15,369 nucleotides of DNA from a virus (IMGVR_UViG_2740892432_000001); one strand, 5' to 3'; shown: positions 13 through 4,293, counted from the first letter of the stretch. Notes: generated by a model not told the origin, from the sequence alone. Program-made: numbers and translations.

Positions 13-801
13 GTGGGTAGGATCAAGATAGTCTATCGCCCATTACAAGAATTGTCACCGTATGCGCACAACGCCAGGACGCACAGTACTGAGCAGGTGG
101 CACAACTGGTAGAAAGTATTAAGCAATTCGGCTGGACTAATCCGGTGCTGATTGACGAAAAGGGCGAAATTATTGCGGGTCACGGTCGTGTTATGGCGGC
201 TGAAATGCTCAAAATGGATTCTGTTCCGGTCATTGTTCTGTCTGGCCTGACGGATGAGCAGAAAAAGGCGTACCGCCTGGCAGATAATCGCCTGCCGATG
301 AATGCTGGCTGGGATGAAGATCTGTTGCGGATGGAGCTGTCGGACCTAATCAATGCTGATTTTGATGTCTCCCTGACAGGCTTCATCCCGACAGAAATTG
401 ATGAACTGTTGACGGATGTTTTGCCCGGTACAGGAAATGAGGAGGAGCCGTATACGACGAAAATTGATACGCCTGTTTATGAGCCGTCGGGCGGTAAACC
501 GGATATCAGTGAACTGTACGACGATACGAAAACTCAGGAGCTGATCAGCCGGATACGTTCGGCGTCCCTTGAGCCTGATATTGAGAAATTCCTCCTGTGT
601 GCGGCAGAACGTCACACGGTGTTTAATTTCAGCAGAATTGCGGACTATTACGCTCACGCCCCCTCTGAAATTCAGTGTTTTTTCGAGGAGTCGGCGCTGG
701 TGATCATTGATTATCAGCAGGCTATTGAAAATGGATTTGTCCGGATGACGCAGCGCATGGTGGAGATCATGCATGGTGGTGAGGAGGAGGAATATGCGTG
801 A
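13..801 (+). CDS. ParB-like nuclease domain (ParB-N/sulfiredoxin fold) protein with an uncharacterised C-terminal domain; may be 5'-incomplete, since the frame is open to the window edge and the first in-window start is GTG at 13
   Basis: N-terminal ~100 aa (IKIVYRPLQELSPYAHNARTHS...IIAGHGRVMAAEML...AYRLADNRL) matches the ParB N-terminal domain pattern, including a GxGR-like motif. The C-terminal ~130 aa has no motif I recognise. Position just upstream of the terminase genes is common for ParB-like and HNH proteins in phages. Confidence 0.7.
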   Translation: MGRIKIVYRPLQELSPYAHNARTHSTEQVAQLVESIKQFGWTNPVLIDEKGEIIAGHGRVMAAEMLKMDSVPVIVLSGLTDEQKKAYRLADNRLPMNAGWDEDLLRMELSDLINADFDVSLTGFIPTEIDELLTDVLPGTGNEEEPYTTKIDTPVYEPSGGKPDISELYDDTKTQELISRIRSASLEPDIEKFLLCAAERHTVFNFSRIADYYAHAPSEIQCFFEESALVIIDYQQAIENGFVRMTQRMVEIMHGGEEEEYA

Positions 802-1726
802 TGATTTTTGCGCCTTTATTCTGACTCACGGGCGACCGGACAAAGTTCTGACTTACCGGACGTTGCGTCGTGCTGGCTATACCGGGAAAATTTTTATCGT
901 TGTTGATGATGAAGATAAGACACGGCATCAGTACATGGCTGAATTTGGTGAACAGGTGCTGGTGTTTTCCAAAGCCGATATCGCCAGTCGTTTTGACGAA
1001 GTCGATAATTTCTGTGACCGCCGCTCAATTTTTTACGCCCGTAATGCCTGTTTCGACCTGGCAAAACTGGTCGGGTGTAAATACTTCATTCAGCTCGATG
1101 ATGATTATCACGAGTTCCAGTTTCGGGTGGATCGCAACTATGACCAGGCCTATTTTCCGATAAGGAAACTGGATGCGATCCTTTCTGAAATGCTGGCGTA
1201 CTACGAATCAATACCTGCTCTTTCCATCGCTATGTCGCAGGGCGGGGATTTTCTTGGTGACAATGGCGGCCATGCTTCGTGGGTGAAACGCAAGGCAATG
1301 AACAGCTTTATCTGTTCGGTTGATCGACCGTTCTCATTCATGGGGCGCATTAACGAGGATGTGAATACGTACACGAATCTCGGTCGCTGTGGTGAATTGT
1401 TTATGACGATCGGTGCTGTCCAGTTAGGGCAGAAACAGACGCAGAAAAACAGCGGCGGAATGACCGAGCTGTATCTGGATTCCGGAACCTACGTTAAAAG
1501 TTTTTACTCCGTCATGTATGCGCCGTCGTGCGTAAAAATCTCACTGATGGGTGCCAGCCATAAACGCATTCACCATCAGGTCACCTGGAACAACGCTGCA
1601 GTAAAAATCCTTCACGAAAAATACAGGAAGAAGACACCCTGCATATCAATGGGGGTGACAAATGATTCCGTATTCGAAAGTCGAGTCTCTGGCAGCGTGC
1701 CGGATGACTGCACAACAAATCGCTGA
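794..1726 (+). CDS. Putative GT-A fold (GT2-like) glycosyltransferase, apparently cytoplasmic; target unknown
   Basis: ORF 773..1726 in the track. Preferred start is ATG 794, preceded by GGAGGAGGAA at 781-790. It has the GT2 N-terminal pattern (FILTHGRP ... KIFIVVDDEDKT) and a DxD-like motif (FIQLDDDY) about 100 aa in. No obvious transmembrane stretch. Family assignment is by motif only. Confidence 0.5.
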   Translation: MRDDFCAFILTHGRPDKVLTYRTLRRAGYTGKIFIVVDDEDKTRHQYMAEFGEQVLVFSKADIASRFDEVDNFCDRRSIFYARNACFDLAKLVGCKYFIQLDDDYHEFQFRVDRNYDQAYFPIRKLDAILSEMLAYYESIPALSIAMSQGGDFLGDNGGHASWVKRKAMNSFICSVDRPFSFMGRINEDVNTYTNLGRCGELFMTIGAVQLGQKQTQKNSGGMTELYLDSGTYVKSFYSVMYAPSCVKISLMGASHKRIHHQVTWNNAAVKILHEKYRKKTPCISMGVTNDSVFESRVSGSVPDDCTTNR

Positions 1727-1913
1727 CGTTCTGGATGTTGATCTGAACCGACTGAAAGAAAATCGGGAAGCAATGACAGATTTTTATGCGGCCATCCGTA
1801 AGGGCAGAGCGAAAGGTGAAGCCGAGTTACGAGCGGCATTGTTTAAGCTTGCCAGAAAAGGGGATGCCTTTGCTCTGCGCGAACTACTCAGGGTGGATAA
1901 AAATCAGGACTAA
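1662..1913 (+). CDS. Small helix-turn-helix protein upstream of the terminase; possible packaging-associated DNA-binding protein
   Basis: 83-aa ORF with a G-rich RBS (GGGGGTGA) before ATG 1662. Contains an HTH-like segment (MTAQQIADVLDVDLNRL). Overlaps the 3' end of the glycosyltransferase-like ORF by 65 nt. Confidence 0.45.
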   Translation: MIPYSKVESLAACRMTAQQIADVLDVDLNRLKENREAMTDFYAAIRKGRAKGEAELRAALFKLARKGDAFALRELLRVDKNQD

Positions 1914-1916
1914 CTG

Positions 1917-3011
1917 ATGAGCAGACCGGACTGGGGGGCGTTGCAGCAGGAGTATATTGCTGAATACACCCGCTCCGGTATATCTCCGGTGGCATGGTGT
2001 GAAGCAAGGGGACTGAATTACGCAACAGCCCGTCGTTACATCAAAAAAACTCCGAAAAATGCGCAGACAGAAATGTGCAAAACTGCGCAAAAAAGTGCGC
2101 AGAAAAAATCTGCGCAGACTGCACAAAAGCGGAACGAAAAATCTCAGGAAAAAAAGCCAGTATTCGATGCGGGCCTGAATGAGGGCGACGCGGAGGAATT
2201 TTCGTTCTGTCCCGATGAATTCGGCATTTCTGACCAGCAGGCTAAGTTTGCGATGCTTGTTGCTCAGGGTAAAAAGCCGACAGAGGCGTACCGACTAGCC
2301 GGTTATGAGGGGCAAGGTGCGACAGCTAACAGCAACGCCAGTCGTATGCTTAGAAATGCCAGGGTTTTTCGCGCTATCAGCTACTTCCGCAATCAGTACC
2401 AGAAACGCTATACCGCAGACCTGGATTTACTAGTGAGTCAGTTGATGGCTATTGTCCTGGCCGACCCCAATCAGCTTGCACAATTTCGCCGTGTTAACTG
2501 CCGTTATTGCTGGGGCGAGAATCATCTCTACCAGTGGCGCGATATAGCAGAATTCGACAAGGCAGCGGCGCAGGCTTCCAGAGATGGCAAACCCGAACCG
2601 GAATATGGAGGCCTCGGCTTTGTTGATAACGCCATACCCAATCCGGACTGCCCGAAGTGCTGCGGTGAGGGAACGGGACAGCTTTATATGGCTGATACCA
2701 CTCTGCTTGATGGGGATGCGCGGCAATTATATGCAGGGGCAAAATTCGGAAAATTCGGCGTTGAGATCCTGCTGGAGGATAAGGCTGCCGCCCGGCGTGA
2801 ATTGTTGCGTTTGTTTTCTGCTGGCGGGGCTTTATGTGCAGATAAACGGCTACAGGAACTGGAAATTGAACGGCGCAGAATGGAAAACCAGAAGCTGCGC
2901 AAAGAGATCGAAACGGTGGAAGATAATGAACATCCCCAGCCTGTGGCGATCAATATTAATGTGGTTGATGCCAGAGTAAGGAGTGATGAAGATGATCTCT
3001 CCGACGCTTAA
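1917..3011 (+). CDS. Terminase small subunit (TerS) with N-terminal HTH, low-complexity AQ/K linker and C-terminal Cys4 zinc-ribbon-like motif
   Basis: AGGA RBS before ATG 1917. Central segment (FAMLVAQGKKPTEAYRLAGYEG...ANSNASRMLRNARVFRAISYF) matches the terminase small subunit signature of the Terminase_2 type. Has CRYC...CPKCC cysteine pairs. Lies immediately upstream of and overlapping the large subunit. Confidence 0.7.
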   Translation: MSRPDWGALQQEYIAEYTRSGISPVAWCEARGLNYATARRYIKKTPKNAQTEMCKTAQKSAQKKSAQTAQKRNEKSQEKKPVFDAGLNEGDAEEFSFCPDEFGISDQQAKFAMLVAQGKKPTEAYRLAGYEGQGATANSNASRMLRNARVFRAISYFRNQYQKRYTADLDLLVSQLMAIVLADPNQLAQFRRVNCRYCWGENHLYQWRDIAEFDKAAAQASRDGKPEPEYGGLGFVDNAIPNPDCPKCCGEGTGQLYMADTTLLDGDARQLYAGAKFGKFGVEILLEDKAAARRELLRLFSAGGALCADKRLQELEIERRRMENQKLRKEIETVEDNEHPQPVAININVVDARVRSDEDDLSDA

Positions 3012-4293
3012 TGTGCCTCAGGCGCGATTTCTTTCAATGCCCCATAAATTTAAAGCCTATATTGCTGGTTTTGGCTCGGGCAAAACATGGGTTGGGTGTG
3101 GCGGCATATGCAAGGGGATTTGGGAGCATCCAGGTATAAATCAGGGATATTTTGCGCCAACGTATCCCCAAATTCGCGATATTTTTTACCCTACAGTGGA
3201 AGAAGTTGCTGCTGACTGGGGATTGAACGTAAAAATTAATGAGGGAAATAAAGAGGTTCACTTTTATTACGGACGCCAGTATCGGGGAACCACTATCTGC
3301 AGATCGATGGAGAAGCCACAAACGATCGTCGGTTTCAAAATTGGTAATGCGTTGGTGGATGAACTGGACATTTTGCCGAAGGAAAAAGCCAGAACGGCGT
3401 GGCGCAAGATAATTGCACGTATGCGTTATAAGATTGATGGACTTCGCAACGGTATTGACGTTACAACCACGCCGGAAGGATTCAAATTTGTCTACGAGCA
3501 GTTTGTTAAAGCCGTGCGTGAAAAAACAGAGCTGGCCTCACTGTATGGTCTGGTGCAGGCATCTACTTTCGATAATGAAAAGAACCTGCCAGCAGATTAC
3601 ATTCCTTCGCTTCTTGAATCATACCCTCCAGAGCTGATTAAAGCCTATCTTCGAGGACAGTTTACTAACCTGACAAGTGGTACTGTTTACCATCAGTTTG
3701 ACCGGAAACTGAATAATTGCGAAGAAGTGGAGCAGCCAGGGGAGCCGATTTATATTGGGATGGATTTTAACGTTGGAAAGATGGCGGGAATCGTCCATGT
3801 GCTGCGTTTGGGGCTTCCATGTGCGGTAACTGAAATCATCAATGCCTACGATACGCCGGATATGATCCGCATCATTAAAGAACGCTTCTGGCTGTATGAT
3901 GGGAATGATTACCGGAAAGTGAGGGAAATTTATATTTATCCAGATGCTTCCGGGGATTCCAGAAAATCAAGTAACGCAAGTACGACGGATATAGCCCAGC
4001 TTAAGCAGGCTGGTTTTAACGTTGTGGTGAACAGCTCGAACCCGCCAGTAAAAGATCGCGTTAACTCAATGAATGCAATGTTCTGCAATGCCAATGGTGA
4101 GCGTCGCTATAAAGTTAATGTGAAGCGTTGCCCGTTATATGCCGAATCTCTGGAGCAACAGGTCTGGGATGAGAAGGGGGAGCCTGATAAAAAATCTGGC
4201 AATGATCACCCGAATGATGCCGGAGGTTATTTCATCGTTAAGCAATTCCCTATTGTCAAACCGACCGGAAGAGTCACATCACTTCGGATTTAA
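2992..4293 (+). CDS. Terminase large subunit (TerL), ATPase/nuclease
   Basis: Walker A-like GFGSGKTW near the N-terminus; size and position are typical. The track ORF starts at GTG 2983. I prefer ATG 2992, 8 nt after the TAAGGAG RBS at 2977-2983, though 2983 or 2986 are possible. It overlaps the TerS stop. Confidence 0.8.
   Translation: MISPTLNVPQARFLSMPHKFKAYIAGFGSGKTWVGCGGICKGIWEHPGINQGYFAPTYPQIRDIFYPTVEEVAADWGLNVKINEGNKEVHFYYGRQYRGTTICRSMEKPQTIVGFKIGNALVDELDILPKEKARTAWRKIIARMRYKIDGLRNGIDVTTTPEGFKFVYEQFVKAVREKTELASLYGLVQASTFDNEKNLPADYIPSLLESYPPELIKAYLRGQFTNLTSGTVYHQFDRKLNNCEEVEQPGEPIYIGMDFNVGKMAGIVHVLRLGLPCAVTEIINAYDTPDMIRIIKERFWLYDGNDYRKVREIYIYPDASGDSRKSSNASTTDIAQLKQAGFNVVVNSSNPPVKDRVNSMNAMFCNANGERRYKVNVKRCPLYAESLEQQVWDEKGEPDKKSGNDHPNDAGGYFIVKQFPIVKPTGRVTSLRI

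Follow-up and report, generated by a model that had tools for sequence, protein, structure and literature searches.

The TGCGCA array in terS

The subject of this study is an array of palindromic TGCGCA hexamers inside the gene for the small terminase subunit (terS; protein, TerS) of the viral sequence IMGVR_UViG_2740892432_000001, a stretch of 15,369 nt that we analyzed at its full length and call the window. The array is a candidate for the recognition part of a pac site, at which phage DNA packaging begins. Its sequence relatives identify the window as a Rac-like lambdoid prophage of Escherichia coli: near-identical records have a Rac backbone and share the order trkG, ParB-like gene, TAGT-like gene, an open reading frame (ORF) of 83 codons, terS and terL, the last encoding the large terminase subunit (TerL). 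The gene is annotated terS in these records, and its product matches PHROG 51 'terminase small subunit' (E = 1.7e-75) and Pfam Terminase_2 (PF03592; 34.5 bits for a gathering score of 26.1; residues 122–321, profile positions 19–129 of 141). From its N terminus, TerS comprises a PacA-like helix-turn-helix (HTH) domain, a low-complexity linker, a Terminase_2 core with a four-cysteine (Cys4) insertion, and a coiled coil with an acidic tail (Table 1).

Table 1. Coordinates of the array, of terS and of neighboring features in the window.
Feature	Position	Strand or location	Basis or remark
N-terminal HTH, residues 1–45, MSRPDW...GLNYATARRYIKK	1917..2051	+	profile comparison, PHROG, AlphaFold
Linker coding region, residues 46 to ~100	2052..2216	+	low-confidence/disordered prediction
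Hexamer array, candidate pac recognition element	2060..2125	inside terS	sequence read and pattern search
A-tracts between boxes	2043–2049, 2055–2059, 2079–2082, 2089–2094	+	composition listing
A-tracts, continued	2103–2108, 2125–2128, 2137–2141, 2149–2155	+	composition listing
terS, small terminase subunit, 364 aa	1917..3011	+	ORF list, translation, Pfam, PHROG 51, annotation
Terminase_2 core of TerS	2280..2879	+	Pfam; own HTH near residues 105–160, oligomerization region
terL, large terminase subunit	2983..4293	+	Pfam Terminase_6N (E 3.7e-33) and Terminase_6C
ParB-like gene	13..801		PHROG 620, E 2e-89
TAGT-family glycosyltransferase (TET-associated)	773..1726		PF20691, E 3.8e-35; PHROG 842 'beta-glucosyl-HMC-alpha-glucosyltransferase'
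orf83, 83 aa	1662..1913	just before terS	matches internal positions 145–218 of 319 of PHROG 309 'terminase small subunit'

Four perfect boxes lie at 2060–2065, 2084–2089, 2096–2101 and 2111–2116, with degenerate copies at 2074–2079 (TGTGCA) and 2120–2125 (TGCACA). Start-to-start distances are 14, 10, 12, 15 and 9 nt, so that the perfect boxes span 57 nt and all six span 66 nt. An earlier note had listed these boxes, 9–15 nt apart, within the TerS gene, and our sequence read and pattern search reproduced the positions exactly. Most relatives have six perfect boxes, of which the two near-copies in the window are single-base variants. TGCGCA is not enriched over the window as a whole, with 11 copies for an expectation of 7.0 ± 2.8 and at least 11 in 18 of 200 shuffles. 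Four copies per 70 nt occurred in 0 of 1000 first-order Markov simulations of the window (maximum three, in 5 of 1000), and the array is the sole cluster of its kind in the window. A near-identical Rac-like prophage, examined with its flanks over 50 kb, likewise has no other cluster of at least three TGCGCA.

The array translates as KNAQTEMCKTAQKSAQKKSAQTAQK. A-tracts alternate with the boxes, an arrangement that may bend the DNA, and between 2043 and 2155 the top strand is 49% A. These homopolymers are prone to frameshifts, and frameshifted variants are found there among database copies. In several relatives (L077–L079; P0010, P0021, P0023, P0029, P0031 and P0036), A-run length variants put the linker in another frame, sometimes restored downstream, or truncate TerS; such variants may reflect homopolymer sequencing error, pseudogenization in cryptic prophages or real slippage.

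Conservation of the hexamers across reading frames

The relatives comprised 120 homologous proteins and 82 related loci, the latter drawn from collections of genome and viral contigs; the genome contig collection gave two of the loci, and scans of viral contigs were much more productive. Because the four perfect boxes of the window share one frame (xxT-GCG-CAR, encoding N, T, S or S followed by A-Q), the window alone leaves room for a peptide-level explanation, in which the repeat follows passively from selection on the linker to be rich in AQ and K, or else from a unit of 12 or 36 nt having recently been duplicated in tandem. In the array, Tandem Repeats Finder picks out periods of 12 and 36, and AQ repeats are widespread after the HTH domain.

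Comparison with the relatives makes this explanation highly improbable. Boxes 1 and 3–6 are in the x-A-Q frame, but box 2 is in another (ATG, GTG or TTG followed by CGC-AAA, encoding M, V or L-R-K), where the residue changes only through the base outside the box. In the x-A-Q frame, the residue before A-Q varies (N/D, S/G, S/T/P/F) at codon positions 1 and 2, whereas the third base (position 1 of the box) is always T. Among 56 distinct relatives, 5 of 36 box columns are polymorphic (14%), compared with 83 of the 135 remaining linker columns (61%), and the difference extends to third-codon positions (2 of 12 in boxes versus 32 of 45 elsewhere in the linker). The spelling T-GCG-CA is used for four of five x-A-Q occurrences in the array and for one of 24 elsewhere in the window; codon usage predicts a frequency of 0.075 (P ~1.5e-4 for at least four of five).

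More distant lineages retain the hexamer in still other contexts. Locus L084 (43% N-terminal identity) has four TGCGCA encoding S-A-Q, T-A-Q, M-R-N and C-A; Klebsiella phage 5 LV-2017 (60%) has six in three frames; Aeromonas phage phiARM81mr (49%) has seven in frames 2 and 3; and the loci L173–L178, more distant still, have six or seven that jointly occupy frames 1, 2 and 3. Their boxes translate as A-Q, L/M/V-R or C-A, and their spacers cannot be aligned with those of the window. The surrounding peptide appears to impose little of its own. Residues 46–94 have predicted local distance difference test (pLDDT) values below 50 in the AlphaFold model and are probably disordered, leaving little protein constraint against selection at the DNA level. 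We used the full-length model, whose mean pLDDT is 48.5, only for the N-terminal helical domain and the low-confidence linker.

These comparisons show that the hexamers are conserved as DNA, independent of reading frame. The AQ/K-rich peptide is, on the same evidence, a translation by-product of boxes and A-tracts rather than the cause of the repeat, since distant lineages place boxes in several frames with unalignable spacers. The earlier note had allowed that the DNA repeat might reflect the peptide repeat and had proposed examining synonymous-site conservation in related phages; the frame data and the third-position constraint contradict the former, and the latter comparison finds 2 of 12 third positions variable in boxes against 32 of 45 in the rest of the linker. 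More generally, a peptide repeat that looks like low complexity can be the imprint of a signal carried by the DNA.

Homology of the N-terminal domain to PacA

The first box starts 3–5 codons past the region encoding the N-terminal HTH (residues 1–45), which AlphaFold models as three helices with pLDDT of 67–78. At the profile level, this domain is homologous to the N terminus of P1 PacA. A nine-sequence N-terminal profile aligned by hhalign to the P1 and D6 PacA N termini with a probability of 98% (E = 1.9e-13), and TerS residues 1–75 match PHROG 1711, the P1 PacA family (E = 4e-5). Reciprocally, D6 PacA matches PHROG 51 and P1 PacA matches PHROG 370. The relationship is weak in tblastn alone (E = 0.5 to D6 pacA). 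We propose that the domain is the reader of the hexamers.

The domain is widespread, forming 197 clusters at 50% identity, and among the single-copy matches listed it is N-terminal or within about 50 residues of the N terminus. Domains related to the PacA HTH also occur as four to seven tandem copies in P0140, P0180, P0225, P0227, P0242, P0245, P0265 and P0269. The single HTH domain weakly resembles the HTH of IS66-family TnpA (NCBIfam NF047593, below the cut-off).

Covariation of hexamer type and HTH subtype

The hexamer sequence changes with the HTH subtype in our sequence set. A recognition helix of the form ...T/S-A-R-R-Y-I/L-K accompanies TGCGCA in the window family and in L084, L173–L178 and the Klebsiella and Aeromonas relatives, whereas ...A-K-R-Y-I-K accompanies TGCGAAT in Yersinia phage vB_YenM_210.17, L081 and L085. 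In these 'AKRY' lineages, the palindromic form is TGCGAAT(TCGCA), including the 12-bp palindrome TGCGAATTCGCA. The HTH of L179 and L180 is paired with five copies of TGATCA, and that of phage 933W with (C/T)GATCAT, four copies of which recur every 12 nt exactly. The peptide footprints shift in parallel: at least three AQ occur within the next 55 residues in 63 of 84 'RRY' representatives and in 0 of 12 'KRY' representatives, while AN repeats are found in seven of the 12 'KRY' representatives and AN[S] repeats in none of the 'RRY' ones.

In phage 933W terS (L086, NC_000924.1), the boxes lie at nt 141–182, right after the PacA-like HTH, and are translated as IDHEIDHKTDHEIDH. Every box includes a GATC for Dam, a feature shared with P1 pac, and by this analogy Stx (Shiga toxin)-converting phages of the 933W type are predicted to have a Dam-sensitive pac site. 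Array layout also varies among relatives. Klebsiella phage 5 LV-2017 (L087) and L094–L113 have bipartite arrays, in which a second cluster of two to four TGCGCA lies 54–152 nt downstream of the first (nt 348–391 of terS in the Klebsiella phage).

Palindromes might also act in RNA, by forming hairpins in terS mRNA or by ending antisense transcripts at an intrinsic terminator. The fold of 2040–2140 has an energy of −29.8 kcal/mol (z = −4.8), and two sites on the minus strand, 2116–2096 and 2127–2109, resemble terminators in having a hairpin followed by a T-run. However, any set of identical palindromes yields such a z-score, which is therefore uninformative, and the terminator-like hairpins, formed by boxes 4–6 and A-runs at 2096–2127, are probably incidental to palindromes interspersed with A-tracts. 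Box number, spacing (7–27 nt) and pairing partners differ among lineages, only the hexamer being kept, and the array covaries with a DNA-binding domain. We consider a role in RNA very unlikely.

Linkage of the HTH domain and the array

The HTH domain is found on Terminase_2 cores in the window and in Klebsiella and Yersinia phages, on the 933W/phiARM81mr-type body (PHROG 370), and on PacA of P1 and D6 (PHROG 1711). Inside E. coli alone, the HTH and array occur with at least two TerL types. The two thus travel together as a single cassette, in combination with different TerS cores and types of TerL. In 80 loci with related TerS cores, a cluster of at least three boxes was present in 19 and absent from two of the loci with the HTH, as against two and 57 of those without it (Fisher P = 4e-14, for loci that are not phylogenetically independent). 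The two exceptions without an HTH, L144 and L160, have three TGCGCA; we rejected these as arrays, as each consists of an intergenic operator-like pair and one distant copy.

Relatives in which the 5′ part of terS has changed separate the boxes from the core. Window Terminase_2 core DNA is 89–93% identical to the cores of Actinobacillus phage pPE4 and Rac-SA53, and the 5′ parts differ. In pPE4 (L003, PP818812.1, ~2850–2915), for which the cassette boundary falls near 2211 of the window, an unrelated N-terminal HTH is followed by repeats of its own in several frames (GTTTCCAC twice, then GTGGAAA/GGAAAC inverted). In Rac-SA53 (L002, KU052037.1, ~2990–3060), annotated as a 'gpO-terS fusion by deletion', the deletion removed the HTH and box 1, with its right-hand junction between boxes 1 and 2. 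Three of the five remaining boxes are mutated, boxes 4–6 reading TTCGCA, TGCGCT and TGCCCA; these substitutions fit decay of the boxes after loss of the HTH, and the junction is possibly a break at pac. The HTH of the Terminase_2 core does not appear to be the pac reader, because near-identical cores are found in pPE4 and Rac-SA53 with replaced or decaying boxes. Rather, the boxes follow the extra N-terminal domain. Since the unrelated HTH of pPE4 also precedes its own repeats, a recognition domain followed by its own site array may be a general layout that extends beyond PacA-like domains.

These data also bear on two further explanations. The first is that the stretch is low-complexity DNA prone to slippage or recombination and without sequence-specific function, or is a cluster of FspI-type restriction sites. 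Frequent A-run length variants and frameshifted linkers in database copies are in keeping with such a stretch, as is the Rac-SA53 junction between boxes. Yet the hexamer is retained exactly across lineages that are 38–70% identical and have diverged spacers, and the association with the HTH would be left unexplained; we regard the idea as extremely improbable. The second is that something other than TerS binds the boxes, namely the ParB-like protein, the orf83 product or a host factor. Just upstream lie a ParB-like gene and orf83, whose small product resembles part of a TerS, and ParB proteins bind clustered short repeats. However, many loci with the HTH and five to seven boxes (L035–L037, L043, L046, L051, L084 and the Klebsiella and Aeromonas phages) lack the ParB-like gene, the TAGT-like gene and a full-length orf83, and we rejected all three as binding partners on co-occurrence. 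Moreover, the hosts belong to Escherichia, Klebsiella, Yersinia and Aeromonas, with the hexamer type tracking the HTH subtype of TerS. Another binder therefore has little probability.

Comparison with phage P1 pac

P1 pac and PacA were studied by Sternberg and Coulby (1987–1990) and by Skorupski et al. (1992, 1994), whose work is summarized in PMC10028697. From the record annotation and our own mapping, P1 pacA has four TGATCA at nt 194–233, an integration host factor (IHF) site at 256–268, primary cleavage sites at 276–285, and more TGATCA/G at 324–380. P1 pac has been described as 161 bp within pacA with seven TGATCA/G repeats that carry Dam sites (PMC10028697; see also PMC11260489). Methylation controls the binding and cleavage of pac by the pacase, and synonymous mutation of the hexamers lowers P1 packaging about 9-fold (PMC10028697).

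The likeness to the window is extensive. In both, the gene for the small subunit contains the site, which comes just past the region encoding the homologous N-terminal HTH and consists of an array of palindromic TG-NN-CA hexamers at comparable spacing (7–15 nt in P1, 9–15 nt here). In both, hexamers in several frames leave a dipeptide footprint, DH in P1 and AQ here. There are also clear differences. The hexamer here is TGCGCA instead of TGATCA/G, and GATC is absent from the window array, so the Dam-dependent timing of P1 pac cannot apply. The TerS body is a Terminase_2 core and not the PacA C-terminal region, and TerL belongs to Terminase_6N/6C and not to the PacB type. A pac site inside terS made of hexamers recognized by PacA is of a known kind; what is new is the hexamer, the lack of methylation sites, the single cluster and the chimeric TerS.

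We conclude that the TGCGCA array is probably the recognition part of the pac site of this Rac-like E. coli prophage, on the plan of P1 pac. This interpretation draws on the frame independence of the boxes, their synonymous constraint, their linkage to the HTH and covariation with its subtype, the homology to PacA, the P1 precedent and the uniqueness of the cluster. The proposal of the earlier note that the hexamers form a pac or TerS-binding site is thereby supported on comparative grounds (DNA-level conservation, HTH linkage, PacA homology and the P1 precedent), from which we infer the packaging function.

Several points weigh against this conclusion. P1 requires two clusters, HEX4 and HEX3, flanking the cut, whereas the window has one, of four plus two boxes; a search of 1700–2600 allowing one mismatch found no second cluster, and the HEX4/HEX3-like layout is seen in some relatives but not in the window. 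P1 has an IHF site between its clusters, and the IHF consensus WATCAANNNNTTR is unmatched on either strand in 1700–2600, although the degeneracy of the consensus makes its absence weak evidence. The window allele has lost two of six boxes and could be a weakened site, although it is the commonest allele in complete E. coli genomes. Neither the cut site nor the packaging direction is predictable from the array. The low polymorphism of the boxes is due in part to a generally conserved 5′ cassette, and, as the relatives share ancestry, the counts describe non-independent events. Finally, our literature searches found no termini, binding data or paper linking TGCGCA to packaging in this phage group; nor did they find any that connect TGCGCA arrays, Rac-like or 933W-type terS, or a PacA-like domain on Terminase_2 proteins with packaging.

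The one alternative that our data do not contradict is a regulatory one: TerS might bind the hexamers for a purpose such as autoregulation of terS and terL expression rather than to initiate packaging. The site is within the terS coding region, where a bound protein could block transcription or translation, and linkage to the HTH does not reveal what binding is for. Against this, the equivalent array of the homologous P1 system is a pac site at which cleavage has been mapped and synonymous mutation impairs packaging, and arrays of four to eight sites are typical of packaging-site recognition and not of a simple operator. We therefore consider a purely regulatory role unlikely, although it is the most credible of the alternatives.

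In the packaging model that we favor, a TerS oligomer would bind several hexamers cooperatively late in infection through its tethered N-terminal HTH domains, and the A-tracts between the boxes may help the DNA to bend. Terminase_2 proteins form rings. Binding of TerS would mark phage concatemers and recruit TerL, which would cut near the array and begin a headful packaging series. The window TerL falls in the T4-like Terminase_6N family, its nearest named relatives being Jersey-like and Kagunavirus siphoviruses; such a TerL is compatible with headful packaging but is not proof of it.

Comparison with other packaging systems

The pac region of SPP1 and SF6 (pacL, pacC and pacR) overlaps the terS region and offers multiple short repeated contacts in bent, A-rich DNA. 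The TerS core of the window is in the same Pfam family, of which SPP1 G1P is the founding small subunit. In these phages, pac has multiple contact points flanking the cut, and the Terminase_2 HTH of SPP1 is taken as the DNA reader, although binding in vitro is weak or non-specific (PMC9611059). In contrast, it is the extra N-terminal domain that covaries with the boxes here, and the Terminase_2 core does not. The TerS proteins of P22 and Sf6 are presumably unrelated to that of the window and without a PacA-like domain. P22 differs further in having a single asymmetric 22-bp site inside gene 3 instead of a hexamer array. In both P22 and Sf6, pac forms part of the coding sequence of terS, and mutations at wobble positions separate the site from protein function (PMC11260489, PMC9611059). 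The analogy with P22, SPP1 and Sf6 drawn in the earlier note thus holds for the location of pac within the small-subunit gene, but the closest system is P1.

A further parallel is lambda cosB, whose R-elements are repeated sites near the cut that are bound by the N-terminal winged HTH of the small subunit, gpNu1. As proposed here, several repeated sites serve an N-terminal HTH of the small subunit; in lambda, packaging follows a unit-length cos mechanism, the sites are 16 bp long and lie upstream of Nu1 rather than inside it, and binding depends on IHF. Specific binding by TerS has been hard to show in vitro for P22, Sf6, SPP1 and SF6, according to a 2022 review of TerS proteins that does not mention PacA (PMC9611059).

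Implications of a possible specificity cassette

A broader possibility, to which we assign about an even chance, is that the PacA-like HTH and hexamer array form a self-contained mobile packaging-specificity cassette. Such a cassette would have been grafted onto at least three unrelated TerS cores (Terminase_2, 933W-type and PacA) and combined with several TerL types, and its specificity would be re-programmable through a TG-NN-CA or TGCGAAT code that tracks recognition-helix residues. If this is correct, sequence would suffice to locate the pac sites of hundreds of phage lineages, among them Stx phages and the prophages in ~17% of complete E. coli genomes, and a TerS–DNA pair with true sequence specificity would be available for structural work.

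With its dedicated small HTH, its short and exactly repeated target and its natural variants in specificity, the system lends itself to direct tests of recognition, by electrophoretic mobility shift assay, by swaps of domains and boxes, and by the single substitution R39K. Our results predict where packaging would start in a common E. coli prophage family, in 933W-type Stx-converting phages and in Klebsiella, Yersinia and Aeromonas phages. These predictions could be used to anticipate generalized and lateral transduction and to build packaging-defective helpers and phagemids, as has been done for P1 (PMC10028697).

Other features of the locus

At about 2499–2663 of the window (TerS residues 195–249), the Terminase_2 core has an insertion with the four-cysteine motif CRYCWG ... 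CPKCCG. The motif is invariant in the relatives, recurs in the proteins of the Klebsiella and Yersinia phages, and looks like a zinc ribbon; the AlphaFold model has low confidence there. A minus-strand ORF that spans the array (1884..2126, 80 aa, TTG start) was taken to be a by-product of the T-rich complement. No sigma-70 promoter was found in a scan of 1500–2500.

The genes for the ParB-like and TAGT-like proteins overlap by 29 nt and lie just ahead of the terminase genes. The window shows neither a TET/JBP dioxygenase nor a C5-methyltransferase to accompany the TAGT-family gene. The product of orf83 may be a relic or may have an accessory part in packaging, and in relatives without the ParB-like and TAGT-like genes the C-terminal half of orf83 still accompanies the HTH and boxes. 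A portal-like gene (Pfam DUF4055) follows terS and terL.

The prophage family is present in 913 of 5426 complete E. coli genomes, and the window array is its commonest allele there, with 549 genomes at 99% identity or higher. Among the relatives are vB_EcoS records, which reportedly stem from a study on phages that were located in E. coli isolates of clinical origin; one that we examined includes ~14 kb of flanking host genes.

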